This document shows, piece by piece, positions 7,278 to 31,592 of a stretch of DNA of 64,000 bases; the first letter of the stretch is position 1, and the number at the start of each line of letters is the position of its first letter. This stretch comes from SAR202 cluster bacterium (lineage in GTDB: Bacteria > Chloroflexota > Dehalococcoidia > Lucifugimonadales > UBA6927), in contig JAKUTX010000005.1 in the NCBI GenBank assembly GCA_022447855.1, forward strand, positions 4,467-68,466. Direction: 5' to 3'. The notes beneath the pieces are model-generated. The model ran no database searches. It had not been told where the DNA came from and worked only from the letters and a program-made list of their open reading frames with translations. The translations under genes were made by a program, and so were the position numbers.

Positions 7278-8009
7278 ATGGAGAAATTTATGATTGCAGG
7301 TGTTAGAAGGAACGTTTTAATAGACGAAGTAATTCCTGAAAGATGGACTCTAAGAGTACATCCGATTCTTTTAGATGTAATTGTAATGTCGGCATTTGCA
7401 TTTTTTGTTGCAGTTTTTGCACAGATAACTTTTTATGTGCCTTGGACCCCAGTTCCGGTTACAGGCCAAACCTTCGCAGTTTTGGTCACAGGCGGAGCTT
7501 TGGGCTTTTCGAGAGGCGTTGGGGCATTAATAATTTATATGATTATGGGACTATTAAGTTTGCCTGTGTTTGCTCCTGTTTCTGCTGATTTGGCTCTCAA
7601 TGTAGATTCAGGATGGGCCGTTCATTTGATTTTTCCTTGGCATGGCTCTGCTGCAGAATTTTGGGAAATAACTACGAAAGCTAGCTTTGGATATATAGTT
7701 GGATTTGTATTTGCTGGTGCATTGGTTGGACATTTCGCTCACCATGCATGGGATCGAAAACCAATGGGTATTTTAGTGATGTTCTTGGCAAACATTTTAA
7801 TTTATGTTCCTGGATTAATTTGGTTGTGGATTGTGTTAGGTCCGATGAAGGACGAGACTCTTAAACTGTCTCAGGTATTGCAATGGGGATTGTATCCATT
7901 CATAGTTGGCGATTTGATGAAGCTTTATTTGGCATTTTTGACGCTGCCTATTGCTTGGACATTGGTTGAAAAAATTAAAAGAAATAATTCTATAGATCAA
8001 GACAAATAA
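7278..8009 (+). CDS. bioY: biotin transporter BioY (ECF S-component type)
   Basis: 243 aa, multi-TM. The conserved BioY block PVPVTGQTFAVLVTGGALG resembles the family motif PVPxTLQTFAVxLxG. Confidence 0.8.
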   Translation: MEKFMIAGVRRNVLIDEVIPERWTLRVHPILLDVIVMSAFAFFVAVFAQITFYVPWTPVPVTGQTFAVLVTGGALGFSRGVGALIIYMIMGLLSLPVFAPVSADLALNVDSGWAVHLIFPWHGSAAEFWEITTKASFGYIVGFVFAGALVGHFAHHAWDRKPMGILVMFLANILIYVPGLIWLWIVLGPMKDETLKLSQVLQWGLYPFIVGDLMKLYLAFLTLPIAWTLVEKIKRNNSIDQDK

Positions 8010-8293
8010 ATTTTAGTTTCTGCGTGAGGAAAAATTACTTCTAAATTTGCTTGTCTTTCTCGTTGTAGAGTTTCTGAGTAGCTAATGTATTCTGGAGATT
8101 CTAACGGTAGATTGTGTGGACAAGATTGATTCCTCTCTTCCTGAGGACACATATGCATTTCGGGATTGTTAGTCCATAGTCCAACTAATTTCATTGGATA
8201 GAAAAGTGTTTCAGCCACATTTCTTAAATCTGCTGGAATCTCGCTTGCCCTTGTTTCGGATTGAGTTTCTAATGCAATGATTATTTGATCCAT
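7997..8293 (-). CDS. hypothetical protein
   Basis: 98-aa ORF starting 2 nt after the thiL stop. Its 3' end overlaps the convergent bioY 3' end by 13 nt. No motif recognised. Confidence 0.35.
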   Translation of the reverse strand: MDQIIIALETQSETRASEIPADLRNVAETLFYPMKLVGLWTNNPEMHMCPQEERNQSCPHNLPLESPEYISYSETLQRERQANLEVIFPHAETKIYLS

Positions 8294-8294
8294 T

Positions 8295-9335
8295 TTACCC
8301 TTCCTGTGATTTAAAATGGTCCCATCCGTTGTAGGTGGGGACGACAGATTTTCCTGTAGAATCTACTAATGTCACATTGTTTTTTTCCGAAGTAATTTTC
8401 CCAATAATATTGATTTGAGTATTTAAAGTTTTTTGAGCGAGAGAAATTATTTTTTCATTACCTGAAAAAAGTAATTCGTAGTCTTCTCCACCGCTAACTG
8501 CAAATTCTATCCAGTCATTTGGAAATAAAATTTTCAAATCAGGACTAATTGGTATTTGATTTAGAAATATGTTGGCTCCAACATTACTAGATGAGCACAT
8601 TTTTTTTAAATCAGTCATTAACCCATCACTTATATCCATTGCAGCTTTCACTCCTAATTTAGCTAATTTAGCTCCTTCAGATACTCTAGAGGATGGGTGA
8701 AGATGTGATTCAATCAAATTTTTTACCATACTTGAATTAAAGTCCATTAGATTTGGATTTTTCAAAATATGTAATCCCGCAGCAGAGGATCCCAAAGTTC
8801 CAGTAACGCATAAGAGATCACCAGGTAGTAATTTATTTCTATAAAGGATTTGTCTCTCGGTATGATCTATAGGCAGTGAACCATTCATTGTTACGGAGAT
8901 GAAAAAAGTTTCTGATGCAACAATGTCTCCACCAATTATTGTGCCGCCAAGTTCGTGACAGGCTTTGGACATTCCTTGATATAGTTGCAAGATTCCATCG
9001 ACTGGCAAATCAGGTCTCAATCCTAAAGTAATGGTAGCAAATGTTGGCTTACACCCCATGGATGCAATATCGCTTTGAGAAGATATGATGGATTTCCATC
9101 CTAGATCTTGGAAGGTTGTCCACTCTAAGTTGAAGTGGACATTTTCTACTAGAGCATCAGTAGTAATAACATTTGATGTGTGCGAACTTTTAAAAACTGC
9201 AGCATCGTCATCAATTGATAAAATTAAATCATGTCCTAGTTTTTTTATGGATTCGATAGAAGTTTCATTTTGAGGAGAAACAATTTTTTGTATTCTGTTG
9301 ATTAGTTCAAATTCACTTATTTCTGAAACCAACAT
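8295..9335 (-). CDS. thiL: thiamine-monophosphate kinase
   Basis: 346 aa. PurM/AIR-synthase-like fold signature with an N-terminal DDAAV block (SIDDDAAVF) and a GGD block (IIGGDIV), typical of ThiL. Confidence 0.85.
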   Translation of the reverse strand: MLVSEISEFELINRIQKIVSPQNETSIESIKKLGHDLILSIDDDAAVFKSSHTSNVITTDALVENVHFNLEWTTFQDLGWKSIISSQSDIASMGCKPTFATITLGLRPDLPVDGILQLYQGMSKACHELGGTIIGGDIVASETFFISVTMNGSLPIDHTERQILYRNKLLPGDLLCVTGTLGSSAAGLHILKNPNLMDFNSSMVKNLIESHLHPSSRVSEGAKLAKLGVKAAMDISDGLMTDLKKMCSSSNVGANIFLNQIPISPDLKILFPNDWIEFAVSGGEDYELLFSGNEKIISLAQKTLNTQINIIGKITSEKNNVTLVDSTGKSVVPTYNGWDHFKSQEG

Positions 9336-9426
9336 TATGTAATCCTCTAAAGATCTTATAAATAGTTTTAACGTTGAACTTATGTTATTATACCGCTCAA
9401 CTCAATTAAGAGTTTTTTGAGGCGTT

Positions 9427-10566
9427 TTGCACATGGCTATTAAAAAGAATTCTAATTCAAAGTCGTTGGTTGTGGTTCAGTTAGCTGGTGGAAATGATGC
9501 TCTCAATACTATTATCCCCTATACGGATTCAAGATATTTTGATAATAGGCGTAATGTAGCCTTGTCCCAAGAAAGTGTGATCAAGCTTAATGATGAGCTT
9601 GGCATGCGGCCTGGAATGGATACGTTTAAGAAATTTTGGGATTCTGGGCAATTAGCAATTATTAATGGGATTGGCTATCCAAACCCAAACAGGTCACATT
9701 TTCGCTCAATGGATATTTGGTATACAGCTGATAATGAAAATTTAGGGCAAGAGGGATGGTTAGGAAAGACGATTCGTGACCTTGACCCTTATGCGGAGAA
9801 TGTTCTTACAGGAGTGAATTTTGGTCGATCTCTCCCCAGAGCAATGTATGCCAAAGATGTTCCGGTTTCTTCTGTTGGAAATTTAGATACGTATGGATTA
9901 TTTCCTGACATGGAGTCAGAGCTGGATCGAGAGAATACGGTGAATGCATTTTCTAGGATGTATGGTGGTAGAGGGAAAGATCTGATCAAAGATTTTATTT
10001 CACAAACTGGAGTGAACGCACTAAAAGGTGCAGATGTTATTCGAAGTGTTTCTGGCAAATATTCGAGTCCTATTGAGTATTCCTCAAGTGCAATTGCTCA
10101 GCAATTACAATCTATTTCAAAGGTTATATGTGCTGATATTGGTACTCGAATTTACTATACTACCTATGGTGGTTTTGACACTCATTCTGGGTTAGTTGAC
10201 ACACATAGCAAGCTTTGGAATGGTCTCTCCTCAGCTATAGGGGATTTTATGGATGATCTTCAATTTCATGATAAGCATGAAGATATAATGGTTCTTATTT
10301 GGTCCGAGTTTGGTAGACGAGTAGCAGATAATGGTGCTGGTTCAGACCATGGTGCTGGAGGAGTAGGCTTTCTTTTGGGATCTGCTGTAGACGGTGGGTT
10401 TTATGGGGAATATCCATCATTGGAGCCCAAATATTTAGATGAAGGGGATTTGAAGTTTAATAATGATTTTCGAGGAACGTACTCTTCGATTTTGGAACAA
10501 TGGTTTGAATTGGATCCAGTTTCGATTGTAGGTGGAAATTACGAGCAATTTTCTATAGTTAAATAA
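9427..10566 (+). CDS. DUF1501 family protein (sulfatase/alkaline-phosphatase-like fold), leaderless
   Basis: 379 aa. Clear paralogue of 27203..28363, sharing blocks QL(A/S)GGND, GxGYP(N/S)PNRSHFRSMDIW(Y/H)TA, GWLGKTIR(D/E)LDP, SEFGRR and DHG. No Tat or Sec leader. The start could be TTG 9427 or ATG 9433. Confidence 0.8.
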   Translation: MHMAIKKNSNSKSLVVVQLAGGNDALNTIIPYTDSRYFDNRRNVALSQESVIKLNDELGMRPGMDTFKKFWDSGQLAIINGIGYPNPNRSHFRSMDIWYTADNENLGQEGWLGKTIRDLDPYAENVLTGVNFGRSLPRAMYAKDVPVSSVGNLDTYGLFPDMESELDRENTVNAFSRMYGGRGKDLIKDFISQTGVNALKGADVIRSVSGKYSSPIEYSSSAIAQQLQSISKVICADIGTRIYYTTYGGFDTHSGLVDTHSKLWNGLSSAIGDFMDDLQFHDKHEDIMVLIWSEFGRRVADNGAGSDHGAGGVGFLLGSAVDGGFYGEYPSLEPKYLDEGDLKFNNDFRGTYSSILEQWFELDPVSIVGGNYEQFSIVK

Positions 10567-10588
10567 ATTCAACTTTCAGTATTACTTG

Positions 10589-11092
10589 TTACCATTTTAT
10601 GACACTTTCATAGTCTATAGAAAGTGTAGATTTTATAGAACGAATCTCCACTAAGAATAATGCGGCGATAGGTGAGTATCCGGCTTCTGTGAGTAGATCT
10701 ACAGCTCCTTGAGAAGTCCCTCCAGTGGCTAAAACGTCATCGAATATTAGTATGCTCCCACTTCCAGTTTGAGCTTCTAGTTGGGCCTTTCCGTATTCTA
10801 ATTCATGATCAATTTTTTTAGTTTCACCTGGTAATCTACCAAGTTTGTTTCGAAGTTGGACAATTCCTTTATTCAGTCTATCTGCCAAGATTGAACCTAT
10901 TAAAAACCCTCTTGCTTCAATTAAACCAAAGTAGTCAAATGATTCTAAATATGGGTGGATTGTCTTGATACAATCTTCTACTAAATGATCACGAGAAGAA
11001 TTGTCTAAGTATATTCCGTTCAAGTCTAGATAGTTGATTCCTTTGATTGGAAAGTTTTTATAAGTACGGATCTTCTTGATGTAACAAGTCAA
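10589..11092 (-). CDS. apt: adenine phosphoribosyltransferase
   Basis: 167 aa. PRPP-binding motif ILIFDDVLATGGT. Confidence 0.85.
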   Translation of the reverse strand: MTCYIKKIRTYKNFPIKGINYLDLNGIYLDNSSRDHLVEDCIKTIHPYLESFDYFGLIEARGFLIGSILADRLNKGIVQLRNKLGRLPGETKKIDHELEYGKAQLEAQTGSGSILIFDDVLATGGTSQGAVDLLTEAGYSPIAALFLVEIRSIKSTLSIDYESVIKW

Positions 11093-11105
11093 AGTTTTAA
11101 ATCCA

Positions 11106-11351
11106 TTATTTGTAAAAATTCTTTACATAACCATTACAAAGAATAGTTATAGGTATCAGTCCTTCTTGTAGAACAACAAATTTTTCTATGTATTGATTTA
11201 GTTTTTCTGTAGGTATGTATTCTAGATCTTCTAATAATTGAGTAAATTTTTCTTTTGGCAATTCTAATTCTGCTCTTCGTATATTTGCTTGAATTTCAAC
11301 AGAAAGAGAAGTTAGGTTATTCTGTTGAGGGTTCTTTTGTATGTTAGTCAT
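11106..11351 (-). CDS. hypothetical protein
   Basis: 81-aa ORF upstream of and co-oriented with apt. No motif recognised. Confidence 0.3.
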   Translation of the reverse strand: MTNIQKNPQQNNLTSLSVEIQANIRRAELELPKEKFTQLLEDLEYIPTEKLNQYIEKFVVLQEGLIPITILCNGYVKNFYK

Positions 11352-11604
11352 TCATACTCCGTATTAGTTAAGTATTTGGAATCTCAGTTTTCTTCTAGAA
11401 CAAGGGTAATTCTAGTGTTTGACTAAAGAACTTTATTTTGGATTTCATCGGATGTCAACTATAAAGTCAATTTGTATTCAGGGATATTGTTTTTGAATAA
11501 TTTTCTGGTTGGACTATTCGACTTAGAGCATTGATCAATGTATGCTTTGTCATCGACATATAATTTAATTTGTTAGATTTTACTTAATATTGGGAGATAG
11601 GAAA

Positions 11605-12570
11605 ATGACGAAATTTATTTTTATGCCCCCTCAAGATGGTTTGAAACCTCAGTTTTCTTTACAGCTGGCTGATTCGTTTCCAGAATTGGAAGTTGTATCT
11701 CCTAAAACAGATGAAGAGGCTCTTGAAGCTATAAAAGATGCTGATGCGGCAATGGGATGGATTCCTCCAGAAGCTTTGAAGGTTGCCGAGAAACTAAAGT
11801 GGTTACATAATCCTGATGCAGGTCCATTTTATGGATACTACTATGATGAATTAATAAAACATTCTCTAACTATTACAAATCCAAGAGGGATTTATTGGGA
11901 TCATATTTCCCACCATGTATTGATGTTTTTATTTGCTTTGTCTAGAGGATTACCCTGGTTTGAAACTGCTAAGAGAGAAAAATTATGGAAAAAAGATGCT
12001 AGGAAAACGCCGTATATTTTTCTGGGAGAAGCAACTGTGTTAATCAATGGAGTAGGAGGTATAGGTCATGAAACTGCAAGATTGTGTTTGGAACTAGGAA
12101 TGAATGTGATTGGAATTGATCCTAGACCTGAATACAAATTAGAGGGTGTAGAAATTTATTCCCCAAATGAAATTGCTACACATTTGCCTAAAGCAGATTT
12201 TGTTGTTTCTACAGTCCCGCATACTCCAGAAACTGAATTGATGTTCAACACCAATACATTTAAATTAATGAAAAATTCAGCTTATTTCATTAATGTGGGA
12301 CGTGGTAAGGTATGTTCAATAGATGATCTTGCAGATGCAATTGAACATGGTGAAATTGCAGGTTGTGGGTTAGACGTATTTGAGATCGAGCCTTTACCTA
12401 GTGATCACAGATTGTGGGTTTTGGATAATGTGTTGATAACTCCTCATATTGCTGTAGCGGATGCTGAGAACTTACCCAATCGAAGATATCAAGTGCTTGT
12501 TGATAACGTAAGAAATTTCCTTAATGGAAATGAATTAAATAATATTGTTGATAAAGAAAAATGGTTTTAA
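11605..12570 (+). CDS. D-isomer-specific 2-hydroxyacid dehydrogenase family protein
   Basis: NAD-binding GxGxxG (NGVGGIGHE), NVGRG and ITPHIA catalytic-His blocks. The track starts at TTG 11590; ATG 11605 (MTKFIF) with an upstream GGGAGATAGG RBS is more likely. Confidence 0.8.
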   Translation: MTKFIFMPPQDGLKPQFSLQLADSFPELEVVSPKTDEEALEAIKDADAAMGWIPPEALKVAEKLKWLHNPDAGPFYGYYYDELIKHSLTITNPRGIYWDHISHHVLMFLFALSRGLPWFETAKREKLWKKDARKTPYIFLGEATVLINGVGGIGHETARLCLELGMNVIGIDPRPEYKLEGVEIYSPNEIATHLPKADFVVSTVPHTPETELMFNTNTFKLMKNSAYFINVGRGKVCSIDDLADAIEHGEIAGCGLDVFEIEPLPSDHRLWVLDNVLITPHIAVADAENLPNRRYQVLVDNVRNFLNGNELNNIVDKEKWF

Positions 12571-12607
12571 GAGAAGATTGTGTAAATATTTTAAATTTTT
12601 GAGATAT

Positions 12608-13501
12608 TTATACGTTTAGCTTCCAAGAATTGATAGTTGATTGTTTTTCAACTGAAATCCCTGGCTTTTCAGGATTTATTTGTTTAATTAAGCTTTCGAT
12701 AGAATTTAGTTTTGAAATCATGTCTGTATAGTTTTTGTGAGTGCTTTTGCTGTTAGTAAATGGCTGCGGAGAATATTCTCTTTTTTGGTCATAGAACCAT
12801 TTAAAGTGAGGCATTATTTCGAAGAAAAATTTTCTATACTGTGGATCGATTTGATTTATCCAAGGTTTTGCATTGAATTTATTTGCCAAATCATTAAATC
12901 CGGAGGTTTCTAGCTCTTCGCCTCTCATTTCCCAGGTTTTAAATTGTAGTTGAAGCTCTTCATAAAGGGTATTGTAATAGTTTTTAGTTGTCGAATATCC
13001 ATTTAATATTTCCGCACACCAAAAGATCTCTGCTTTCAAACATTTTTGTTCAATGTCGTTCCATATATCTGTAGCATAGGAGATTCTTAAATACCATTTA
13101 ACTATGCCTATAGAAGGAGCACAGGAGAACTTTTTTACATACCACATTGCACAATCCAGGGCATTTCTTGATTGATCCCATGGGATTATATGTGAGAATT
13201 TATTTATGGATGTAGGCCACTCAAATTTTTCTCGTTCTTCAATATTAGGTATTAGATTTTCCGTTTTGATTTTTCTAATATATTCACGGGTGGTTCTAAA
13301 TGTTGGGTAATTATTATATATATTTTGGGTAATTTTATCGTTATTTGTGTAATCATGATTTTCTGAAGATATTTCAGCTGCTTTTGTTAGTGACCAGTTT
13401 TTTATTTCATTGAAAATTTCAGGCGCTTTTTCCTTTTTGTTATTTATTAATAGATCAGCTATCTTTTCTATGAATATTATATTTATTGGTTGTCTAGGCA
13501 T
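12608..13501 (-). CDS. hypothetical protein (orphan, Trp/Tyr/Asn-rich)
   Basis: 297-aa uninterrupted ORF in a very AT-rich segment. No signal peptide, TM helix or recognisable motif. Confidence 0.45.
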   Translation of the reverse strand: MPRQPINIIFIEKIADLLINNKKEKAPEIFNEIKNWSLTKAAEISSENHDYTNNDKITQNIYNNYPTFRTTREYIRKIKTENLIPNIEEREKFEWPTSINKFSHIIPWDQSRNALDCAMWYVKKFSCAPSIGIVKWYLRISYATDIWNDIEQKCLKAEIFWCAEILNGYSTTKNYYNTLYEELQLQFKTWEMRGEELETSGFNDLANKFNAKPWINQIDPQYRKFFFEIMPHFKWFYDQKREYSPQPFTNSKSTHKNYTDMISKLNSIESLIKQINPEKPGISVEKQSTINSWKLNV

Positions 13502-13659
13502 GTTTTATCCTTTTATGTAATTCATCATATTATAACAGTGAATTATTAAATTAAAACCGTTTTTATTAATTTAAACTGTTTTAATATCAATTTTTATATC
13601 ATCATAAATTTGAATAATTTTTTTAATTAGATATAATTTTCATGGTTTAGGAGTTCAAA

Positions 13660-14760
13660 ATGAAAATTACTGATATATCCGTCCATAGAGTTTCAATTTC
13701 TCAGAATTCTAATACTCGATTGCTACTTCAAGTACATACTGATGAAGGTGTGACTGGCATTTCGGAGGCTGGCAGAAATTTGCTTGTTACGCGTGCTTAC
13801 CTTGAGGAGTTGATTAAACCACTCTTGCGTGGAGAGGATCCGTGTCGTCCCAAAAGGATTTGGGAGTTGTTATCTTTGGGTGATTCCGACAAGGCTACGC
13901 GTTTTCCTTCTGCAATAGTTGGAGCTATAGATGTTGCTTTGTGGGATATTACAGCCAAATCTGCTGGGCTTCCGTTGTATTCTTTTTTGGGTGGAGCTTC
14001 ACGTATTGAAATCCCATTATACTGGAGTATAGGTAGCGGATGGAGAAAGTCACCTGAACAAATGTTAGATGATGTTCAGCAAGGTTTTGATAAAGGCTAT
14101 AGAGCATTTAAAGTACGTATGGATTGGCGTGACTATCGACAAGATTCTAATCCGATTCAAGATTTTGCTATTTTTCAAAAATGTAGAGAATGGCTTCCCG
14201 ATGATTGCCCGCTTAGTTTTGACGCAAATTGTGGGTATTCTGTTCCAACTGCAATTGAGCAGGGCCGTCGTCTAGAGGAATTAGGTGTAGCTCATTTTGA
14301 GGAGCCTTTACCTCAATATGACTATCCGGGCTTAAAACAAGTTGTTGATGCCTTAGATTGCGCTGTTTCTACGGGAGAGAATGATATTTCTTCATGGAGA
14401 TTTCGAGATTTAATTACTTTGGGGAATCCAGATATTCTTCAGCCTGATATTTTAAATGTAGGTGGGTTGTCAGAGATGATGAGAGTCTATGAACTCGCAG
14501 TTGTTCATAACAAAATTGTGATGCCTCATAGCCCAAGTGTGGGAGCTAATTCAATGGCCAGTTTGCATTTGTATTCCACAATAAAAAATGCTGTAAGGCC
14601 GCATGAATTTTCTGAAGAATTTACTGGACCTGCTGAAGAAGTATCACAATTATTCATTGATCCAGTTTTACCACATAATGGCAAAATCACTTTGCCAGAT
14701 CGTCCAGGTTTAGGTTTAGAGATTGATCCAGTAGAATTAAAGAAGCGTATTTTAGAATAA
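13660..14760 (+). CDS. enolase-superfamily enzyme (mandelate racemase/muconate lactonizing enzyme family) 1
   Basis: 366 aa. N-terminal capping-domain block AIDVALWDITAKSAGLPLYSFLGG. Barrel blocks FDAN.., HFEEP.. and STGEN fit the three metal-ligand strands. Confidence 0.85.
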   Translation: MKITDISVHRVSISQNSNTRLLLQVHTDEGVTGISEAGRNLLVTRAYLEELIKPLLRGEDPCRPKRIWELLSLGDSDKATRFPSAIVGAIDVALWDITAKSAGLPLYSFLGGASRIEIPLYWSIGSGWRKSPEQMLDDVQQGFDKGYRAFKVRMDWRDYRQDSNPIQDFAIFQKCREWLPDDCPLSFDANCGYSVPTAIEQGRRLEELGVAHFEEPLPQYDYPGLKQVVDALDCAVSTGENDISSWRFRDLITLGNPDILQPDILNVGGLSEMMRVYELAVVHNKIVMPHSPSVGANSMASLHLYSTIKNAVRPHEFSEEFTGPAEEVSQLFIDPVLPHNGKITLPDRPGLGLEIDPVELKKRILE

Positions 14761-19726: not shown

Positions 19727-20872
19727 ATGAAAATAGAAAAAATTGAAACACATTTGGTTCGGGATTTATTTCTTGTTGAAATAATTACAGATAATGGCAT
19801 TAGGGGTTTGGGTCAATCAGCTTGCTGGGGATTCCCTGAAGCAGTAAGTGCTATTGTGAAAAAAATGATTCCACTTTTGGTTGGTCAAGATCCTACTAAT
19901 ACCGAACACATTAGCCAATTACTTTATCGATCGGCTCCTTTCAAAGGTTCTGTGTTGTCAGGAGCTTTGTCGGCGATTGATATAGCACTTTGGGATATTA
20001 AGGCAAAGAAGTTTCAAATTCCAGTATGGGAATTATTGGGCGGGAAGGTTCGTGACAAAGTGAGACTTCATTTATTGCTAGGTGGTTGGGATAATCAATT
20101 GCCAAAAGAAGAGGGGATTTTTGGGGCTGCTAAAAAAGCTGTCGCACAAGGATTTACAGCTTTAAAAATCGATCCACTTCCAGACAATTATTTTGATCTT
20201 TCATTGGAAAAACTTGTTAAACAAACTAGGGAATATGTTGGTGCTTTGAGGGAAGGCGCAGGTGATGAAGTTGATATTATTTTAGAAATCCATCGTAAAT
20301 TAACACCGATGGTTGCCATTCACTTGGCTGAAAATCTAAAGGAATTCAATCCTATGTTTTATGAAGATCCAATTCAAATTGACAGTATTATTTCACAGGG
20401 TGAAATAGCCCAGAAAGTTTCTATACCTGTAGCAAATGGAGAAAGGATGCATTCTATTTGGGAATTCCGAGAACTTTTAACTCACGGAGGTCCTCAATAT
20501 GTTAGGCCCGATGTAGGATTGGCTGGCGGATTAACCCATACAAAGAAAATTGCAGCAATCGCTGAATCTTTTCATTCTGCTGTTGTTACTCATAATTTCC
20601 TAGGTCCCATTTTAACTGCAGCATCTGTACATCTTGATGTTACTATTCCCAATTTCATTACTCAGGAATATACATTGGCTGATGAATCTGAGAAACATGA
20701 TTTTGTTAATTCTACTCTTAAGCGAGAAGGTGGGTATATCCTTCTTCCAGACGAGATTGGTTTAGGTGTAGAAATTGACCAAGAAAAAATTTCTAAAACC
20801 CCTTATTCTCCCCGTGAATTGCAAGATGCAGTTCCTTTTCGGAATGATGGGTCTGTCGCTTTTTCTGTTTAA
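19727..20872 (+). CDS. enolase-superfamily enzyme 2 (acid-sugar dehydratase-like)
   Basis: 381 aa. AIDIALWDIKAKKFQIPVWELLGG, barrel blocks ILEIHRK, FYEDP and ANGER. The start abuts the stop of the upstream epimerase gene (TAAATG). Confidence 0.85.
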   Translation: MKIEKIETHLVRDLFLVEIITDNGIRGLGQSACWGFPEAVSAIVKKMIPLLVGQDPTNTEHISQLLYRSAPFKGSVLSGALSAIDIALWDIKAKKFQIPVWELLGGKVRDKVRLHLLLGGWDNQLPKEEGIFGAAKKAVAQGFTALKIDPLPDNYFDLSLEKLVKQTREYVGALREGAGDEVDIILEIHRKLTPMVAIHLAENLKEFNPMFYEDPIQIDSIISQGEIAQKVSIPVANGERMHSIWEFRELLTHGGPQYVRPDVGLAGGLTHTKKIAAIAESFHSAVVTHNFLGPILTAASVHLDVTIPNFITQEYTLADESEKHDFVNSTLKREGGYILLPDEIGLGVEIDQEKISKTPYSPRELQDAVPFRNDGSVAFSV

Positions 20873-20891: not shown

Positions 20892-22010
20892 TTGAAAATT
20901 ATATCTGTTGAATCTGCAACTTGCGTTGTTCCATTGGATTCAGGTGTTGCTTTTGCGACTAGGTCCGTTCAGGAGCGACATTATACGTTGGTTAGAATCC
21001 GTTCAGATTCTGGAATTGAGGGGATAGGATTTTCATATACTGGTCATAAGGCAGGTGGTGTGACAACGATGGCAATAAGAGAATTGTTGTCGGATGTTGT
21101 TATTGGACGTGATCCTCATCAGATAGAATCAATTTGGGATGAAATGTACAAGGAATCTATTTTGCACGGACGCAGAGGGTCGGTTTTGAGAGGAATCAGT
21201 GCAATTGATATAGCTTTATGGGATTTAATTTCAAAAGATGCAGGGCTTCCACTATATAAGATGTTAGGAGCATTTCATGAAGAAATTGTTCCAGCATATG
21301 CTAGTGGTGGATATTATCAACCAAATAAGACTCCAGAAGATTTAGCGAATGAGATGCGAAGTTATTTAGATTTGGGACTTAGGGCTGTTAAAATTAAAGT
21401 AGGTAGAGTTTCCACCTCTGAGGATGTTACTAGGATAGGATTTGCACGAGAGGCAGTAGGGAACTCAGTCCCTTTATTTTTGGATGCAAATAATGCTTGG
21501 AGTGATGCAAGTTCAGCAATTCAGGCCTGTAGGGAATTTGAGGTTCATTCACCTGATTGGATTGAAGAACCATTAATGCCGGATGATATTTTAGGTCATG
21601 CAAAAATTGCTCAGGCAATAAATATACCTGTTGCTACGGGAGAAATTCATCAAACAAGATGGGATTTTGAACAGATTTTAGATAATAATGCTGCAGATAT
21701 TTTACAATCAGATGCAGGTGTTTGCGGAGGCATAACTGAATGGAGGAAGATTGCATCAATGGCAGCAGGACGTGATGTAATTGTTGCTCCTCACTGGTTA
21801 GCTGATATACATGTTCACTTAGTTGCCAGTACTCCTAATGCATCTTGGGTTGAGTTCTTTACGGATCATTCAGTTCTAAATATTGGTAGATTGTTTTCGA
21901 CATCGCTAGAGATCAAAGATGGAGGCTTAAAAATTCCTCAGAGTCCTGGGATAGGTGTGGATTTTGATGATGAAGCAGTGCAAAAATTTTCTTTAGATGG
22001 TTGGCTATAA
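20892..22010 (+). CDS. enolase-superfamily enzyme 3 (mandelate racemase family)
   Basis: 372 aa. AIDIALWDLISKDAGLPLYKMLG, LDANNAW, WIEEP and ATGE blocks. TTG start with an AGGAG RBS. Confidence 0.85.
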   Translation: MKIISVESATCVVPLDSGVAFATRSVQERHYTLVRIRSDSGIEGIGFSYTGHKAGGVTTMAIRELLSDVVIGRDPHQIESIWDEMYKESILHGRRGSVLRGISAIDIALWDLISKDAGLPLYKMLGAFHEEIVPAYASGGYYQPNKTPEDLANEMRSYLDLGLRAVKIKVGRVSTSEDVTRIGFAREAVGNSVPLFLDANNAWSDASSAIQACREFEVHSPDWIEEPLMPDDILGHAKIAQAINIPVATGEIHQTRWDFEQILDNNAADILQSDAGVCGGITEWRKIASMAAGRDVIVAPHWLADIHVHLVASTPNASWVEFFTDHSVLNIGRLFSTSLEIKDGGLKIPQSPGIGVDFDDEAVQKFSLDGWL

Positions 22011-23341: not shown

Positions 23342-24232
23342 TTAGTTCCATATTGTATTTCCTGGAATTAAGGTGCGAATCTTGTAAAGTGATGTTGAGG
23401 CAGTAATGTACATGGTCTGCATGTCCTCATCTCCCCAAGTAAAATTTGAGACTGATTCGGGTATTTTAATTACACCAATCGATTTTCCGGAAGGATCGAA
23501 ATAGTGGATTCCTCCAGGTCCAGTAGTACATATATTTCCTAAAGAATCTATTTTCATTCCATCTGGAACGCCTTTTCCTTCACCAAATACTGTAGTCCAA
23601 ACCTTTCCCTCAGATAATGATCCATCATCTGAAACAATGAACGAACGAATATGTTCCCTTGCAGAGTCATTAACAAATAATTTTTTCTCGTCGAGAGAAA
23701 AACATAATCCATTTGGTTGGATGAAATCATCTGATAAAAGAGTAATTTTTTTGCTTTCAGGTTCAATGTTATAGAGACCACAAAAGTCTAGTTCCTGTTC
23801 TCTCGGTACTCCGTAGTATTCCATTCTTCCAAATGAGGGATCCGTAAAATATATAAGGCCGTTTTTACTAATAATTAAATCGTTGGGGCTATTTAATTCT
23901 TTCATGCCATAGTGAGAGGCTAAAATAGTGATTGAACCATTTAATTCAGTTCTCACCACTCTGCTAGTGGCATGTTCACAAGTAATAAGACGCCCTTTAG
24001 AATCAAAAAAATTTCCATTTGCCATGTTACTTGGTTGTCTAAATGTTTCGACCCCATTTTTGACTGTCCACTTACGCATGATATTTCCAGGCATATCGCT
24101 GAAAATTAAAGCATTTTCAATAGGATTCCAAACTGGTCCTTCGGTGAATTCAAATCCAGTTGCCAGTTGTTGGATTGAGACGTTTGGATCGACTATTTTT
24201 TTGAATGTATCGTCACGAATTTCAATGTTCAA
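23342..24232 (-). CDS. SMP-30/gluconolactonase/LRE-family lactonase
   Basis: 296 aa. TEGPVWNP, SPNDLI, QPNGLCFS and VPDGMKID blocks, characteristic of the six-bladed lactonase propeller. Confidence 0.8.
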   Translation of the reverse strand: MNIEIRDDTFKKIVDPNVSIQQLATGFEFTEGPVWNPIENALIFSDMPGNIMRKWTVKNGVETFRQPSNMANGNFFDSKGRLITCEHATSRVVRTELNGSITILASHYGMKELNSPNDLIISKNGLIYFTDPSFGRMEYYGVPREQELDFCGLYNIEPESKKITLLSDDFIQPNGLCFSLDEKKLFVNDSAREHIRSFIVSDDGSLSEGKVWTTVFGEGKGVPDGMKIDSLGNICTTGPGGIHYFDPSGKSIGVIKIPESVSNFTWGDEDMQTMYITASTSLYKIRTLIPGNTIWN

Positions 24233-25789: not shown

Positions 25790-27163
25790 ATGGCATTATT
25801 AGAGCAAAGAACAAGTATTGCACAAGTTGCGCATTTACTTAGGAGGGCGGCATTTGGAGAACCAGCTTCCAAATTGGAGAGCAGGTTGTCAGAGTCATAT
25901 GAATCAATTGTTGAAGATCTGATAAATGTTGGCAATTATCCTAGGCTTGAGGAAGATCTTTTAGAAAGACATAATTTACAACACGCTGATGAAGAAGTTC
26001 GTTATTGGACTAGAGCTAGATGGATATATCGGATGATTAATTCACCTAGGCCTCTTGAAGAAAAAGTTGCATTGATGTGGCATGGGGTTTTTGCTACTGG
26101 AGATTCAAAAGTCACAAATAATCCAATGATGAGGACCCATTATGAGATGCTTCGGGATAAAGGACTTGGGAATTTTCAGGATCTACTTGTCGCATTGGCA
26201 AAAGATCCTGCAATGATCTTTTGGTTGGATAACCAAATGAATCATGCCGACGCTCCGAATGAAAATTTTGGTAGAGAATTGCTTGAGTTATTTAGCATGG
26301 GCATTGGCAATTATAGTGAAGAAGATGTTAAAGAGTGCGCTAGAGCATTCACAGGATGGACGAAATCGCAAACAATTCCTAGATATCCTAATGGGTTTTA
26401 TGATAGTCAGTTTATATTTAGATCAGAAGATCATGATTCTGGAATGAAAACTTTTTTGGGTGAAACTGGCCCATTTGATGGTGAAGATATTATAGATATC
26501 ATTGTGAAGCAACCAGCTACAGCAAAATTTGTTGCGTCTGAAATCTATTCTTTTTTTGTTTCTGATGATCCCGTTGAAGAACATGTTGAATTAATTGCTG
26601 AGGTTTTTGTAAATTCGAACTATATGATCTCGGAAGTTTTGCGCTACGTTTTCAATACCGATTTTTTTAAAAATGCAATATTTAAGAAAGTTAAGAGTCC
26701 TCCTGAAATTGTAGTCGGAACGGCAATACTTTCTGGAAGACATCAGACACCATACGAATTTGGACTTTCTAGGATGGCAGATGCTACAAAGAATATGGGT
26801 CAAGACTTGTTAAATCCTCCTACTGTAGAAGGATGGCATACTGGTAGAGAATGGATTGATTCGTCATACTTAATAGAACGAGTGAATTTTTCAGCTCAGA
26901 TGATATCCGATATTTCTGCTCCAGGAACAGAAGCAATAATTAATAGGATCGCTTCTAAAAAATCTAAGTTTCTTGCTAGGGAATTATTAGATGAGTGCTT
27001 GTATGAAATGGGATCAATTCATCTTAAGCCTCGATCTATTGAAGTGTTATTTGATGAATTAGACATACCAGATTTTATAGATACTGAATCCAAAGAATTC
27101 TTAGAAATTGTATCGGGGATGCTTAGGTTAATTGTATCTTCCAGAGAGTATCAATTTGCGTAA
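25790..27163 (+). CDS. DUF1800 family protein, leaderless
   Basis: 457 aa. N-terminal AHLLRRAAFG block, HWHGVFAT-like (MWHGVFAT) and ENFGRELLELFSMGIGNYSEEDV blocks as I recall for DUF1800. Immediately precedes a DUF1501 gene, the usual pairing. Confidence 0.8.
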   Translation: MALLEQRTSIAQVAHLLRRAAFGEPASKLESRLSESYESIVEDLINVGNYPRLEEDLLERHNLQHADEEVRYWTRARWIYRMINSPRPLEEKVALMWHGVFATGDSKVTNNPMMRTHYEMLRDKGLGNFQDLLVALAKDPAMIFWLDNQMNHADAPNENFGRELLELFSMGIGNYSEEDVKECARAFTGWTKSQTIPRYPNGFYDSQFIFRSEDHDSGMKTFLGETGPFDGEDIIDIIVKQPATAKFVASEIYSFFVSDDPVEEHVELIAEVFVNSNYMISEVLRYVFNTDFFKNAIFKKVKSPPEIVVGTAILSGRHQTPYEFGLSRMADATKNMGQDLLNPPTVEGWHTGREWIDSSYLIERVNFSAQMISDISAPGTEAIINRIASKKSKFLARELLDECLYEMGSIHLKPRSIEVLFDELDIPDFIDTESKEFLEIVSGMLRLIVSSREYQFA

Positions 27164-27202
27164 TGTTTTTGATTTTGAATTTGTAAATTCTGAGGAGAAA
27201 AG

Positions 27203-28363
27203 ATGGTTGAACAATTAAATGAAACATTAGACTCTGGAAAACCACCCGTATTTGTTGTAATTCAACTTTCTGGTGGGAATGATTTTATGAGTACAGTAAT
27301 TCCGTTTAGGGATTCCCATTATTTTGAGTTTCGTAAGACTGTTGGTATTTCTGAAGAAGATGCACTGCATATTGATCAAGGATTTGCCTTTCATCCTGCT
27401 ATGGGAGCTATTAAACGACTTTGGGATGAAGGTAAGGTAGCGCTTTTCCCAGGATCGGGATATCCTTCTCCCAACAGATCACATTTTAGATCGATGGACA
27501 TTTGGCATACCGCTAATCCAGAAACTTTAAGTTCCGATGGTTGGTTAGGGAAAACGATAAGAGAACTTGATCCACAAAAAGAAAATGTTGTTACAGGGGT
27601 AAGCTTTGGTTCAGGACTCCCAAGGGCAATGTATTTGTCAGGGACTCCTGCAATATCTGTGACTGAATTAGAGGGATATGGGTTGTTGACTGATCTTGCA
27701 GGAAAGAAACAACGCCAGGCAGTAAAAGCTTTTACCAGGATGTATGCCCCAGAAGAATTTGAAGAAGCTAGCGTAGTATGGGACCATTTAGGACAAACAG
27801 GTATTGATGCTCTTAATGGAGCAGATATGCTTAGCACTGCTCCTCCTATTTATAAATCTAGTATTGAATATGCTGAGGATTCACTTTCTCAAAGTCTTAA
27901 AGGTATAGCTCAAGTTCATCTTTCTGGCATAGGTACAAGAGTGTTTTATGCTCAATTAGGTGGTTTTGATGTTCATGGAGCTCAGATTCAAACGCAACAA
28001 AAATTACTGTCTTCTGTATCTAGAGCAGTAGGTGATTTTATTGATGATCTTAGAGAACATGAGGCTTCAAATGAGGTTGTGGTAATGATTTTTTCAGAAT
28101 TTGGTCGCCGAATTCGAGATAATGGAAATGGTACAGATCATGGTTCTGGGGGAGGCACTTTTTTGATTGGCGATAGAGTAAAGGGTGGTTTCTATGATAA
28201 TTATCCTTCTTTAGCTCCAAAAGACCAACTTGATGGAGATATGCATTTTACTCATGATTTTAGGTCAGTATATGCAACAGTTTTAGAACAATGGATTGGA
28301 ATCAATTCTAATCCAATATTAGATAGCAAGTTTGATCAATTTGAGGGTGTATTTTCTCGTTAG
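27203..28363 (+). CDS. DUF1501 family protein, leaderless
   Basis: 386 aa. QLSGGND, GSGYPSPNRSHFRSMDIWHTA, SEFGRR and GTDHG blocks. The mature-domain motif begins at residue ~16, so there is no Tat/Sec leader. Confidence 0.85.
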   Translation: MVEQLNETLDSGKPPVFVVIQLSGGNDFMSTVIPFRDSHYFEFRKTVGISEEDALHIDQGFAFHPAMGAIKRLWDEGKVALFPGSGYPSPNRSHFRSMDIWHTANPETLSSDGWLGKTIRELDPQKENVVTGVSFGSGLPRAMYLSGTPAISVTELEGYGLLTDLAGKKQRQAVKAFTRMYAPEEFEEASVVWDHLGQTGIDALNGADMLSTAPPIYKSSIEYAEDSLSQSLKGIAQVHLSGIGTRVFYAQLGGFDVHGAQIQTQQKLLSSVSRAVGDFIDDLREHEASNEVVVMIFSEFGRRIRDNGNGTDHGSGGGTFLIGDRVKGGFYDNYPSLAPKDQLDGDMHFTHDFRSVYATVLEQWIGINSNPILDSKFDQFEGVFSR

Positions 28364-28399
28364 ATTTTTAAATTCAGTCTTTATAATTAGGAACTCAAT

Positions 28400-29494
28400 A
28401 TGAGCACATTCACAGATAACCAAATTTCCCATGATCCTAGATATCCGACTTTACTTAGAAGGGGACATAGATATGAATTTTGCTTGGGGCAAAGAGTTCC
28501 TGTAGGCGGGTTTTATGGACCTTTGGATGTTTCTATTGGGGATGACGGATGGTTTTATGTATTAAATAGGTGGGAACAATTTCAAAATGTTCCTCGGAAT
28601 AGATACGTTCCAGTTACTATTGATGATGAATATGGAGAATTTATTTTCCCTACTATTGACGGGAAACCAGAAATTCAAGGGAAAGAAAAGTTTCCTTCCC
28701 CAGTAATGTGTACTATTGATAATGAAGGGGTTTTGTACTCTACTGATGAGCATGCAAATGTAGTTTTGATGCTTAGTACGTCTGGCGAAACTATCGGATG
28801 GTGGGGTGAGTTTGGATCTCAGGAAGGTCAATTAAATGGCCCATCTGGCATTACATTGGATTCAGATCAGAATCTATGGATAGTTAATTGTAATAATCAC
28901 AAAATCCAAAAGTTTACTCGCGAAGGTCAATTTGTCGATAGTTGGGGGGATTTTGGGACTGAGCTACATCAATTAAATCATCCATGGGGAATTACTATTG
29001 ATCCAATAGATAATTCTCTTCTGATTGCTGATTGGAGGAATGACTTAGTAAAAAGGTTTTCAACTGAAGGGGATCTTCTCCAGGTAATTGGTAGTCCAGG
29101 GAATGGGATAGGAGAGTTAGATAGACCAAGTTCTGTTGCGGTTGATCAACATGGGGACATCTATGTTGTTGATAGAGGAAACAACAGAGTGTTAATTTTT
29201 AATCATAGAGGAATGTTTTTGGAGTCGTTGATTGGTGATGGTACTGTAACTGACAAGGGTGTTCAAAAATTATTGGCAAATCCGGATGCCCTTAGACTAA
29301 GAGATAATGTGGTTAATTTTGACCGTGAAAAAAGGTTTGCTGCTCCAACCTCAGTTAAAGTGGATTTACAAGGGAGAGTATTTGTTGTTGATACTGGTAG
29401 GTGGAGGATTCAGGTTTATCAAAAATTATGGAGGGTTCTAGAAAATCATGAGATCGACTCCCCAGAAATGCATTTGGACCCGGAGATTTATTAA
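28400..29494 (+). CDS. NHL-repeat beta-propeller protein
   Basis: 364 aa. Repeated ~45-aa units with G.F..P.Gi..D..g.iyV.D..N.ri..F (e.g. LNGPSGITLDSDQNLWIVNCNNHKIQKF, LNHPWGITIDPIDNSLLIADWRNDLVKRF, LDRPSSVAVDQHGDIYVVDRGNNRVLIF). Confidence 0.75.
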   Translation: MSTFTDNQISHDPRYPTLLRRGHRYEFCLGQRVPVGGFYGPLDVSIGDDGWFYVLNRWEQFQNVPRNRYVPVTIDDEYGEFIFPTIDGKPEIQGKEKFPSPVMCTIDNEGVLYSTDEHANVVLMLSTSGETIGWWGEFGSQEGQLNGPSGITLDSDQNLWIVNCNNHKIQKFTREGQFVDSWGDFGTELHQLNHPWGITIDPIDNSLLIADWRNDLVKRFSTEGDLLQVIGSPGNGIGELDRPSSVAVDQHGDIYVVDRGNNRVLIFNHRGMFLESLIGDGTVTDKGVQKLLANPDALRLRDNVVNFDREKRFAAPTSVKVDLQGRVFVVDTGRWRIQVYQKLWRVLENHEIDSPEMHLDPEIY

Positions 29495-29514: not shown

Positions 29515-30057
29515 ATGATTTTAGGATCTGAAAAATTACTAGAAATGGTCAAGGAATTTCATTTAGTTGAAGGGCTGTCAGAAAGGGAGATAAAAAACCC
29601 CGAAGGCGCTGGGTTTGATCTTCGTTTAGGAGAAGTGTTCAAGATTGAAGGAGAAGGATTCCTAGGGGTTTCTGAGAGAGAAACCCCCTCAGCTATACCA
29701 ATAGCTGGAGGTGAAAAATGTAAGGACATCACTGAGGTCCAAATTCACCCGGGTGAATTTTATTTATTTAAGACTATCGAAACAGTGAATATTCCTGAGG
29801 ATATTACTGTAAATATTAAACCAAGGACTACCACATTTAGATCTGGGATTTATATTCGTTCAGGGAATGTTGCTCCAGGATATTCTGGAGAGTTAACATT
29901 TGCAGTAAAAAATGAAGGACCAAGTATTGTTCGTATAGAAATAGGAGCGAGGATTGTGCATGCTCAATTTTATAGAGTTGAAGGTTCGTCGAACACCTAT
30001 CGGGGTCAGTGGCAAGGAGGACGAGTGTCTACGGAATCTAGAGAAATCCAAGTTTAA
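29515..30057 (+). CDS. dCTP deaminase / dUTPase-fold protein (divergent Dcd-like paralogue)
   Basis: 180 aa. N-terminal GAGFDLRLG block and PGYSGELTFAVKNEG block correspond to Dcd/Dut-fold motifs. Clearly distinct from the canonical dcd at 33343..33924. Confidence 0.6.
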   Translation: MILGSEKLLEMVKEFHLVEGLSEREIKNPEGAGFDLRLGEVFKIEGEGFLGVSERETPSAIPIAGGEKCKDITEVQIHPGEFYLFKTIETVNIPEDITVNIKPRTTTFRSGIYIRSGNVAPGYSGELTFAVKNEGPSIVRIEIGARIVHAQFYRVEGSSNTYRGQWQGGRVSTESREIQV

Positions 30058-30092: not shown

Positions 30093-31592
30093 ATGAAAAT
30101 TTTCCCTTTTAGAGTTTTTGGCCAATTAATTCTAATATTTGTAACTGTGATATTCGTTGGATGTGCGAGTAATAATCAAAGTTTGGTTAAACCCACACCT
30201 AAACCAAATCCATTGTCTATAGAAGATGATTATTCTATTAAGCTTCATGTATATCCAACTCCCATTTCAGTTGGTGATATTCTTTCTGATTCGACAAAAG
30301 CTTCGAATAATGAATTAAATGTTTCTGTAAAACCAGTATCCTCTAATTCTTCCAAAAATGTTGAGAACCAATTGGAACCACCAAAAACTGTTAGAATTCC
30401 GACTAATGGGGAACATATTAAATTGCCCTCAATTCACATTTCTGGGAAGAGACAAACAAAAGATTTAGTTACACTTGAGACCACCCCTTTTACAGAAATC
30501 CCTTTCACGGAAGATAGCTTTAGCCGTCCGATGCTTTTCACAGATTTGGTAAGAAAGGATCATCAATGGAAATTTACTTCCAGTGCTGTTAATGCTCTTG
30601 GAGATGATTTTGGCTCTTTGGTTGGTGCAATGGATGCGACATGGTCACCTGACGGGAAAAAATTGGCTTATGTTTCTGAAGATCAATTTGCACTTGCCAT
30701 TGCTAGTGATCAAGGAGAGATTTTTTTAGGGATTAATAGTTTTGTTCATTATCCTATTTTTGAATGGTTATCTTGGTCGCCAAATAGTCAATTTCTCGCG
30801 GTTATGGTTTTTAATTGGTGTGCGGTCGGATCGAATATCGCTGAACTAGTTATTATTGATGTTGATAACAAGACGCTTAAAAGATATGACTATTATGAAT
30901 TTTGGCAATCTGAAGGCACGGAAGATGGCCCTACAAAATTTTCTAAGCCTACTCAGTTTCGTTGGTCACCAGACGGAAAAAAACTATTAATTTCTTGGGA
31001 TTATGTCATGGTCTTAGATGTGTTTAATAACAAATATGAATATATTTTGAAAGAAGGGATTATCCCAGATTGGTCTGCTGATAGCGAAGGAATTTATTAT
31101 CTTAAATATCAAGAGCCCAATAATAGGACCTCAAATGATTCAGTTACTGGGATGTATTTTTTGTCGATAGAAGACGATTCCTATCCAAAGTTAATTGCAA
31201 GCGAAAACGATTTAAAAACATTGTTGGGCGTTTCTCAGAATCAAAAGATTTCTGGGATTATTGATCAATCTAATGATGGATCACAGTTGGCTTTGAGTAT
31301 TTCTAGCGGATCTAACGCGAGTGAATATATGAGCAAAGTTTTTGTATTTGATATTTTGTCTGAAAGATTAATGCATTTGGAACAACCGCAGGGTGTTTAT
31401 GAGATTAGCAAAAGAATTGAATCAATTCAATGGTCTGTTGATGGAGGAAGTATTTCAGCAATTATTTCTTCCGACAAAATTTCCTTGGAGCTATTAAATT
31501 TGTCAAATGGAGCATGGACTTTGTTGAAAAAATTGGAGATCCCTCCAGCATTTTTGCCATCATTAAATAAACGAATAAGATGGGGATCTTAG
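30093..31592 (+). CDS. lipoprotein with TolB/DPP-IV-like beta-propeller repeats
   Basis: 499 aa. Signal peptide plus lipobox (VIFVGC|ASNN). Recurrent WSPDGKKL / WSPNSQFL / WSADSEGIYY / WSVDGGSI blade motifs. Confidence 0.6.
   Translation: MKIFPFRVFGQLILIFVTVIFVGCASNNQSLVKPTPKPNPLSIEDDYSIKLHVYPTPISVGDILSDSTKASNNELNVSVKPVSSNSSKNVENQLEPPKTVRIPTNGEHIKLPSIHISGKRQTKDLVTLETTPFTEIPFTEDSFSRPMLFTDLVRKDHQWKFTSSAVNALGDDFGSLVGAMDATWSPDGKKLAYVSEDQFALAIASDQGEIFLGINSFVHYPIFEWLSWSPNSQFLAVMVFNWCAVGSNIAELVIIDVDNKTLKRYDYYEFWQSEGTEDGPTKFSKPTQFRWSPDGKKLLISWDYVMVLDVFNNKYEYILKEGIIPDWSADSEGIYYLKYQEPNNRTSNDSVTGMYFLSIEDDSYPKLIASENDLKTLLGVSQNQKISGIIDQSNDGSQLALSISSGSNASEYMSKVFVFDILSERLMHLEQPQGVYEISKRIESIQWSVDGGSISAIISSDKISLELLNLSNGAWTLLKKLEIPPAFLPSLNKRIRWGS

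Follow-up and report, generated by a model that had tools for sequence, protein, structure and literature searches.

The genes for DUF1800 and DUF1501 proteins have been noticed together before. They form a predicted operon of unknown function, with a twin-arginine translocation (Tat) motif on DUF1501 (PMC5122149). DUF1501 has also been reported with the PSCyt1/PSCyt2/PSD1 modules of Planctomycetes and Verrucomicrobia, again without a known function, and its copies are numerous in planctomycete genomes (Kamneva et al. 2012, PMC3542564). For the SAR202 group, Saw et al. 2020 (PMC6946804) place COG3391, COG4102 and COG5267 among the 50 most abundant COGs and state, in the passage on the correlation matrix, that the three 'all represent uncharacterized conserved proteins'. 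Here we analyzed a 64,000-nt stretch of a SAR202 cluster bacterium contig (JAKUTX010000005.1, positions 4,467 to 68,466; hereafter the window). In this window a DUF1800 gene, a DUF1501 gene and a gene for an NHL-repeat propeller follow one another (the trio; Table 1), and a second, solo DUF1501 gene is present elsewhere. Very probably, the trio is a three-gene module that is conserved in Dehalococcoidia/SAR202, carries no export signals and descends from a Tat-exported two-gene system. Our main reading, to which we assign a probability of roughly 0.6, goes further: the three proteins would make up a single cytoplasmic three-component module (a putative complex) that is specific to Dehalococcoidia/SAR202 and originated from the widespread Tat-exported DUF1800-DUF1501 system.

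The DUF1501 protein was searched against 1.84 billion cluster representatives (50%-identity clusters), which returned 12,506 representatives at E <= 1e-3. Among the best 150 of them, 136 proteins were full-length, and 125 of these featured an RRxFL motif followed by a hydrophobic stretch. Such leaders add about 30-45 residues. One Tat-type relative also matches the Pfam TAT_signal model, to which none of the window proteins could be matched. Tat export is thus the family norm, as the initial annotation had held, and the window copies depart from it. Leaderless sequences among the same 150 representatives are the few clusters nearest to the query; a cluster look-up put a name to just one of the other leaderless representatives, which belongs to Chloroflexota. 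A convincing Tat leader was found in none of the 87 DUF1501 open reading frames (ORFs) from the related loci (described below) and the window. One of the leaderless genes is peculiar. It is located at 6956-8125 of locus L079 (Dehalococcoidia metagenome-assembled genome (MAG), JAPYUX010000007.1), and its maximal ORF, opening with MLNSNPNRRDFLIEQKERSL, has the twin-arginine consensus NRRDFL without a hydrophobic region behind it. Judging by its sequence, this consensus could be what remains of an ancestral Tat leader.

All four ORFs (DUF1800, two DUF1501 and NHL) were present as first annotated, and their Pfam scores confirmed the families (Table 1; the gathering cut-offs are 27 bits for PF07394, 26.1 for PF08811 and 20 for PF01436). 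A motif and hydrophobicity scan revealed no Tat motif, signal peptide or membrane helix in the three operon proteins, and the combination of an S/T-R-R-x-F-L-K motif, a hydrophobic region and a cleavage site is absent from both the trio proteins and the solo DUF1501. The highest Kyte-Doolittle value for a 19-residue segment did not exceed 1.15 in the three operon proteins, compared with 2.42 in the neighboring NhaA, which served as a control. Classical export signals are nevertheless used by this organism, as can be seen from the lipoprotein signal in the gene starting at 30093. The DUF1800, DUF1501, NHL and solo DUF1501 starts each have an in-frame stop codon a short way upstream, at distances of 39, 12, 12 and 9 nt, respectively. 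An N-terminal extension, and with it a hidden leader, is therefore impossible in all four genes, and no Tat motif is supplied by an alternative upstream start, in line with what had been claimed at the outset. Both DUF1501 copies are indeed leaderless. The accompanying statement that they start exactly at the mature-domain motif had to be corrected, as the first beta-strand motif is preceded by 13-17 polar residues that include neither a twin-arginine nor a hydrophobic region. With no export or membrane signal detected, the trio proteins are predicted to be cytoplasmic, which agrees with the prediction of the initial annotation.

It might be argued that the lack of leaders is an artifact of annotation or assembly (a wrong start or a frameshift), or that the genes are decaying relics. 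We consider the probability of this to be negligible. Besides the stop codons close to each start, the N-terminal layout is repeated across 85 independent loci and hundreds of metagenome proteins 375-391 aa long. Every invariant DUF1501 residue is retained, and the proteins are still 57-82% identical despite saturated synonymous sites. Relative to orthologs of this protein identity, nonsynonymous divergence (dN) amounts to 0.14-0.36, while synonymous divergence (dS) is saturated, which makes the dN/dS ratio not computable. Such dN values together with saturated dS indicate purifying selection on these genes and not relics.

The three genes are separated by 39 nt (DUF1800/DUF1501) and 36 nt (DUF1501/NHL). 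Their starts are preceded by the Shine-Dalgarno-like sequences GGGGGA (that of DUF1800), GAGGAG and AGGAA, and no terminator-like sites were found on the + strand between them. Related loci were obtained by scanning one genome per GTDB species. The best 80 of at least 596 matching stretches were analyzed, all of them from Dehalococcoidia, SAR202 or Chloroflexota MAGs. Loci were annotated with hidden Markov models built from homologs, and the resulting set comprised 85 non-redundant related loci, 80 of which come from MAGs named Dehalococcoidia, SAR202 or Chloroflexota. The closest named relatives of the window are MAGs labeled 'SAR202 cluster bacterium' or 'Chloroflexota bacterium'. If DUF1800 is denoted by 8, DUF1501 by 5 and NHL by N, the architecture of the window, 8-5-N, accounts for 45 of the 85 loci. 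The order is 5-8-N in 12 loci, 8-N-5 in seven and 5-8-N-8-N in four; ten loci have a solo 5, two show 5-8 with the locus cut by the contig end, and five are compound. Overall, a same-strand NHL gene is located within 3 kb of DUF1501 in 72 of the 85 loci, and a DUF1800 gene in 75. The DUF1800-DUF1501-NHL arrangement recurs with unrelated flanks at homologs whose identity to the window proteins is 84% and 67% (DUF1501) or 50%, 46% and 45% (NHL). The proposal that the NHL gene is the third member of the unit thus passed the synteny test, being supported by the number of linked loci, by the unrelated flanks and by three gene orders.

The 5-8-N-8-N loci (L035, L039, L046 and L048, about 8100-13800 in each) consist of one DUF1501 gene followed by two DUF1800-NHL pairs. 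Such a layout suggests that DUF1800 and NHL are duplicated together and that the copies share one DUF1501; it would fit a common catalytic subunit combined with exchangeable specificity modules. Clustering of all neighboring ORFs in the related loci did not reveal any fourth conserved gene around the trio. The sporadic neighbors are SDR, MqnA-like, amidohydrolase_2 and enolase-superfamily genes; enolase, amidohydrolase_2 and SDR are SAR202 catabolic families. Antisense ORFs under the trio genes, which form seemingly 'conserved' clusters in 33-64 high-GC loci (L036, L074, L040 and others), were rejected as shadow ORFs. In two situations the unit is interrupted. One subclade (L057, L060, L061, L068 and L071, about 5900-6900 in each) has an SDR gene between DUF1800 and DUF1501, and in L006 an AbiJ_NTD4-domain gene (5044-5895) separates DUF1501 from NHL.

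NHL/YncE-type propellers are very abundant in SAR202, and the NHL gene might therefore be just a frequent neighbor of what is really a two-gene pair. COG3391 occupies the 11th place in the list of abundant SAR202 COGs, which makes chance adjacency likelier here than in other genomes. Moreover, ten of the 85 loci lack NHL, and the AbiJ or SDR genes may be found inside the unit. Even so, we regard this explanation as very improbable. The linkage of NHL is kept through three gene orders, with NHL on the same strand and at short gaps, and NHL is co-duplicated with DUF1800 in the 5-8-N-8-N loci, whereas the flanks are otherwise unrelated. The NHL subfamily also tracks the DUF1800 and DUF1501 subfamilies: all three are of the window type in L001-L014 and of the other type elsewhere.

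The comparison with Tat-type pairs strengthens the distinction. Starting from the nearest Tat-type DUF1501 proteins, a scan of metagenomes yielded 80 loci; after removing two leaderless loci of the Dehalococcoidia type and adding seven plasmid loci, 81 entered the analysis in which NHL linkage was scored. The 8-5 pair is nearly universal among these loci and the twin-arginine motif is present in almost all of them, and no conserved surroundings of the Tat-type pairs were found. NHL occurs nearby in only two of the 81 (L096 and L149), in both cases as a propeller of roughly 600 aa with its own signal peptide, and in one of them 2.7 kb away. The difference in NHL linkage (72/85 versus 2/81) corresponds to an odds ratio of 219 (Fisher p = 1.2e-30). 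The seven plasmid loci (Thermus, Miltoncostaea, Chondrinema, Agarilytica, Acidisarcina, Vibrio and Sphingomonas) represent six phyla, and all seven have DUF1800 followed by a Tat-bearing DUF1501, with NHL in none. Taken together, these counts show NHL to be a lineage-specific addition coinciding with the leaderless clade. In a neighbor-joining tree, the Dehalococcoidia DUF1501 sequences fall into a single clade apart from the Tat-type representatives, and its subclades match the gene orders.

The DUF1800 match is full-length, residues 15-455 of the protein corresponding to positions 1-418 of the 419 in the PF08811 profile. Its N-terminal HLLRRAAFG helix is a conserved part of the domain and should not be mistaken for a Tat motif. 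The initial annotation had listed DUF1800 as leaderless, too, and as likewise predicted to be cytoplasmic. The protein does lack a leader, but this is not special, as about 35 of 48 DUF1800 partners of Tat-type DUF1501 are also signal-less, starting 8-47 residues (median about 20) before the 'HLL-R-GFG' helix; a minority of DUF1800 proteins in Tat-type loci have a Tat, Sec or lipoprotein signal of their own. We infer that the missing leader of the window DUF1800 is ancestral for this branch and not new. The derived events are consequently the loss of the Tat leader in DUF1501 and the gain of NHL. The frequent lack of a signal in DUF1800 further suggests that in many lineages this protein is carried across the membrane in a complex with its DUF1501 partner, as a Tat 'hitchhiker'. 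If so, such hitchhiking would imply a stable DUF1800-DUF1501 complex. The AlphaFold2 model of DUF1800 is confident and all-alpha, with a predicted local distance difference test score (pLDDT) of 86.9 and a predicted template modeling score (pTM) of 0.89. Foldseek did not find a PDB match for it (best E = 1, TM-score 0.13), nor did sequence or profile searches of the PDB. There are a few sub-threshold hints, drawn from the DUF1800 proteins of the window, P0494 and L091:3446-4822 and all below significance: a likeness to phycobilisome linkers (Pfam PBS_linker_poly, E = 0.034; PDB Glr1262, E = 0.029) and, in a Bacteroidota DUF1800, a hint of planctomycete PSD2 (E = 0.017). A 2026 paper links DUF1800 proteins to ApcE. 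Fusion of DUF1800 with a propeller was considered and rejected, as the long DUF1800 proteins of other phyla carry TIG/Ig domains instead.

Hitchhiker export exists for Tat complexes, and this raises the question of whether the trio might still be exported, either by a non-classical route or as a passenger on an unlinked protein with a Tat or Sec signal. Hitchhiking is likely for many of the signal-less DUF1800 partners of Tat-type DUF1501, and near two Tat-type loci there is an NHL propeller with a signal peptide of its own (see above). On the other hand, no signal was present in the loci checked, that is, in 87 DUF1501, 79 DUF1800 (two of them flagged by the hydrophobicity screen) and 82 NHL ORFs, and there is no fourth conserved gene that could supply one. 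We therefore consider export of the trio very improbable and retain the cytoplasmic module as the preferred reading.

The AlphaFold2 model of DUF1501 is poor (mean pLDDT 61.5, pTM 0.72). Nevertheless, Foldseek matched it to 53 PDB chains at E <= 1e-3, and all 50 of those listed belong to the alkaline-phosphatase superfamily. They include LtaS (the best match, E = 3e-6, probability 1.0), type I sulfatases, EptC/MCR-1 and autotaxin, with E values from 3e-6 to 1e-3, probabilities of about 1.0 and TM-scores of 0.3-0.4 for a model of this pLDDT. The sulfatase/phosphatase-like fold proposed initially is thus supported, at the level of a predicted structure. Sequence and profile searches of the PDB with DUF1501 gave no match. 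A 71-sequence alignment that included Tat-type relatives revealed the following invariant residues: G24-G25-x-D27, S93-H94-F95, D256-x-H258, E299-F-G-R-R303, D312-H313-G314, D352, R354 and Y357. All of them are present in both window copies. They make up the motifs that we refer to as GGND (D27), NRSHF (S93-H94), FDVH (D256/H258), SEFGRR (E299-R303) and DHG (D312-H313). The candidate metal ligands are D27, D256/H258, D312/H313 and possibly E299, and Ser93 is the likely nucleophile. Because the model is unreliable in the corresponding loops, this assignment is based on conservation and on analogy with the superfamily. DUF1501 as a type I sulfatase was ruled out: the formylglycine (FGly) motif C/S-x-P-x-R is absent from both copies, and the Pfam Sulfatase model PF00884 scores 11.7 bits (E = 0.16), under its cut-off of 25.

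Tentatively, DUF1501 may be a metallo-hydrolase or transferase that acts on phospho- or sulfo-esters of imported organic compounds. Cytoplasmic members of the alkaline-phosphatase superfamily are typically mutases. Accordingly, one might accept the cytoplasmic three-part module and yet see in DUF1501 not a hydrolase of phospho- or sulfo-esters but a phosphomutase or transferase (like iPGM, phosphopentomutase, LtaS or EptA), or even a non-catalytic protein. The top Foldseek matches are as much transferases (LtaS, EptC/MCR-1) as hydrolases, and the FGly sulfatase motif is missing; the strict invariance of Asp, His, Ser and Arg residues speaks for catalysis of some kind. We give this alternative a low but appreciable probability.

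The NHL protein was expected to be of the six-blade type, and six NHL-like blades can be read in its sequence. Its best PDB match is the likewise six-bladed NHL domain of TRIM71 (E = 3e-45), followed by the sensor domain of PknD (7e-15), while Vgb lyase and peptidyl-hydroxyglycine lyase are matched much more weakly. In Pfam, the protein also matches SGL (40.6 versus a cut-off of 26.3, over 74 residues only), Vgb_lyase (31.7 versus 50) and DUF5128. The NCBIfam scores are 122 bits for ScyF (cut-off 350) and 18.6 for Vgb(A) (cut-off 600). We therefore did not assign the protein to the ScyF, Vgb lyase or SMP-30 lactonase type. The conserved residues across 82 trio-linked NHL proteins are mostly those of the blade motifs. 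Since ligand-binding NHL domains are the closest structures, lyase scores are low and conservation follows the blades, we somewhat favor a role in binding or specificity over a catalytic one.

The solo DUF1501 paralog of the window shares 47% identity with the operon copy over 368 residues. The long identical blocks reported for the two copies (PNRSHFRSMDIW, GWLGKTIR-LDP and SEFGRR) were found in both. According to Pfam, the solo gene is located between an AIR-synthase-family (ThiL-like) gene and a phosphoribosyltransferase gene, that is, in a housekeeping-type setting. In the tree it is grouped with the 5-8-N and 8-N-5 subclades, apart from the operon copy, and members of its subclade are usually found beside a DUF1800-NHL pair of their own. 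The solo protein may function by itself or, in trans, together with the only DUF1800-NHL pair of the window.

Bringing these observations together, we propose the following scenario. In this lineage DUF1501 has lost its twin-arginine leader, and the pair has gained the NHL partner. DUF1501 would be the catalytic subunit, a metalloenzyme that removes a phosphoryl or sulfuryl group, by hydrolysis or transfer, from small organic substrates taken up by the cell. DUF1800 would be its obligatory all-alpha partner, co-exported as a pre-formed complex in Tat-type relatives, and the NHL propeller would serve as a substrate-binding/specificity module or, alternatively, as a follow-on module of the lyase/lactonase type. 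SAR202 cells are monoderm, and isolates can now be cultivated (PMC10444878). The move to the cytoplasm would fit a planktonic monoderm cell, which lacks a periplasm where a soluble enzyme could be kept after export, and the many paralogous trios would agree with the tendency of SAR202 to expand families of catabolic enzymes.

Several points weigh against this scenario. In about 1.2 Mb of Dehalococcoidia DNA we found no convincing Tat-type signals, so that the loss of the leader could reflect a general loss of Tat use and not a specific relocation. The partners are not always adjacent, as ten of the 85 loci and the second copy in the window are solo DUF1501 genes. The genes neighboring the trio did not provide any substrate clue. 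In the DUF1501 model, pLDDT is below 50 around both the putative nucleophile (residues 85-124) and the DHG loop (301-315). Profile alignment (hhalign) of DUF1501 with one SAR202-type sulfatase is weak (E = 0.08) and puts SEFGRR instead of DHG on the sulfatase metal-ligand motif, which renders the ligand mapping uncertain. Finally, the DUF1501 tree, being a neighbor-joining one, carries no support values.

The remaining features of the window, which has a GC content of 36.9%, are listed in Table 1 together with the genes discussed above. The dCTP-deaminase/dUTPase-like gene starts 20 nt past the NHL stop codon. Its product falls under the NCBIfam cut-offs (81.5 versus 92.8 for dCTP deaminase, and likewise for dUTPase), and the gene was rejected as a trio member, not being seen beside the trio in the related loci examined. 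The SMP-30/gluconolactonase-like gene is located just upstream, with the divergent NhaA gene between it and the trio. A similar SGL gene is found directly upstream of DUF1800 in L006 (1353-2225), and a lactonase gene is present near the trio in L007. The three enolase-superfamily paralogs lie within 9 kb, two of them adjacent; such clustering is typical of the SAR202 enolase expansion (Saw et al. 2020; Lim et al. 2023). The selenocysteine tRNA implies that the genome uses selenoproteins.

Table 1. Trio genes, the solo DUF1501 paralog and other features of the window (window coordinates)
Feature	Coordinates	Strand	Details
SMP-30/gluconolactonase-like (SGL) propeller gene	23342-24232	-	six-blade
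DUF1800 protein	25790-27163	+	457 aa; PF08811 335.3 bits, E = 8e-100
DUF1501 protein, operon copy	27203-28363	+	386 aa; PF07394 75.8 bits
NHL propeller protein	28400-29494	+	364 aa; PF01436 89.9 bits
dCTP-deaminase/dUTPase-like gene	29515-30057	+	Pfam DCD match
Protein with PD40/WD40-like propeller repeats	30093-31592	+	499 aa; lipoprotein signal MKIFPFRVFGQLILIFVTVIFVGC with lipobox
Solo DUF1501 paralog	9427-10566	+	379 aa; TTG start 9427 or ATG 9433; PF07394 73.6 bits
Enolase-superfamily (MR_MLE) paralog	13660-14760	+	
Enolase-superfamily (MR_MLE) paralog	19727-20872	+	
Enolase-superfamily (MR_MLE) paralog	20892-22010	+	
Selenocysteine tRNA	58352-58445	+	Rfam RF01852, 68.3 bits (gathering score 47)

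Part of this picture is already in print. The trio can be placed in the three COGs by name, as the JGI product names of close homologs match the COG names, and 'SAR202 cluster bacterium' is among the NCBI names. That the three families co-vary had thus already been noted by Saw et al. 2020. We found no other paper naming the three COGs together in the literature searched, and the supplements of the SAR202 cultivation paper (PMC10444878) do not list them. Nor did we find in the literature searched, in so far as its text was accessible, any description of the operon itself, of its other gene orders, of the missing Tat leader, of the link to NHL or of a descent from exported pairs.

DUF1501 and DUF1800 are very large families without a known function, DUF1501 alone comprising more than 12,000 clusters (50% identity) that HMMER can reach. 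SAR202 ranks with the most abundant bacteria in the dark ocean, and three of its 50 most abundant COGs form one genetic module. The most far-reaching interpretation is a speculative one and, in our estimate, rather doubtful: the trio would be a previously unrecognized cytoplasmic complex, with a DUF1800 fold absent from the PDB, whose paralogs let SAR202 strip phosphate or sulfate (or perform a related transfer) from many imported compounds of dissolved organic matter. If true, the trio would constitute a lineage-defining catabolic expansion alongside enolases and flavin monooxygenases, and the first tractable signal-free entry point to DUF1501/DUF1800 function; the weight of the finding grows with either outcome. 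Expression and assays should be less difficult with a signal-free version than with forms that depend on Tat. The module would also illustrate the transfer of an exported two-component system to the cytoplasm, here in a planktonic monoderm cell, and the gain of a further partner on the way.

Among known systems, the trio can be compared with four. The COG expansions of Saw et al. 2020 concern the same three families in the same lineage. The accessible parts of that paper deal with abundance and correlation only, and do not mention trio linkage, gene orders, loss of the Tat leader or ancestry from exported pairs. Alkaline-phosphatase-superfamily enzymes (type I sulfatases, LtaS, EptC/MCR-1, NPP/autotaxin) resemble DUF1501 in the core fold detected by Foldseek and in having Asp-His pairs, a conserved Asp at the end of the first strand and a Ser in the position of the nucleophile. 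DUF1501 differs from them in the lack of sequence-level similarity and of the FGly motif, and in its obligatory partner gene. The PSCyt/PSD modules likewise combine an enzyme-like DUF1501 subunit with a large partner and have undergone massive duplication within one lineage. However, their partner is a PSCyt/PSD protein with cytochrome-c motifs, whereas the partners in the trio are DUF1800 and NHL, and those modules carry Tat or Sec signals. The closest relatives are the Tat-exported pairs (COG5267/COG4102) of Proteobacteria, Bacteroidota, Acidobacteriota, Actinomycetota, Thermus and others. They consist of the same two adjacent Pfam families, share the invariant DUF1501 residues, often have a signal-less DUF1800 and, like the trio, represent an autonomous unit in variable surroundings. 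In contrast to these pairs, the DUF1501 of the trio has no twin-arginine leader, a six-blade NHL protein is added and a cytoplasmic location is predicted. Gene order is variable in the trio loci, some of which have duplicated DUF1800-NHL pairs, and fixed as 8-5 in the exported pairs. The variant that is both leaderless and accompanied by NHL was found only in loci of the Dehalococcoidia/SAR202 type.

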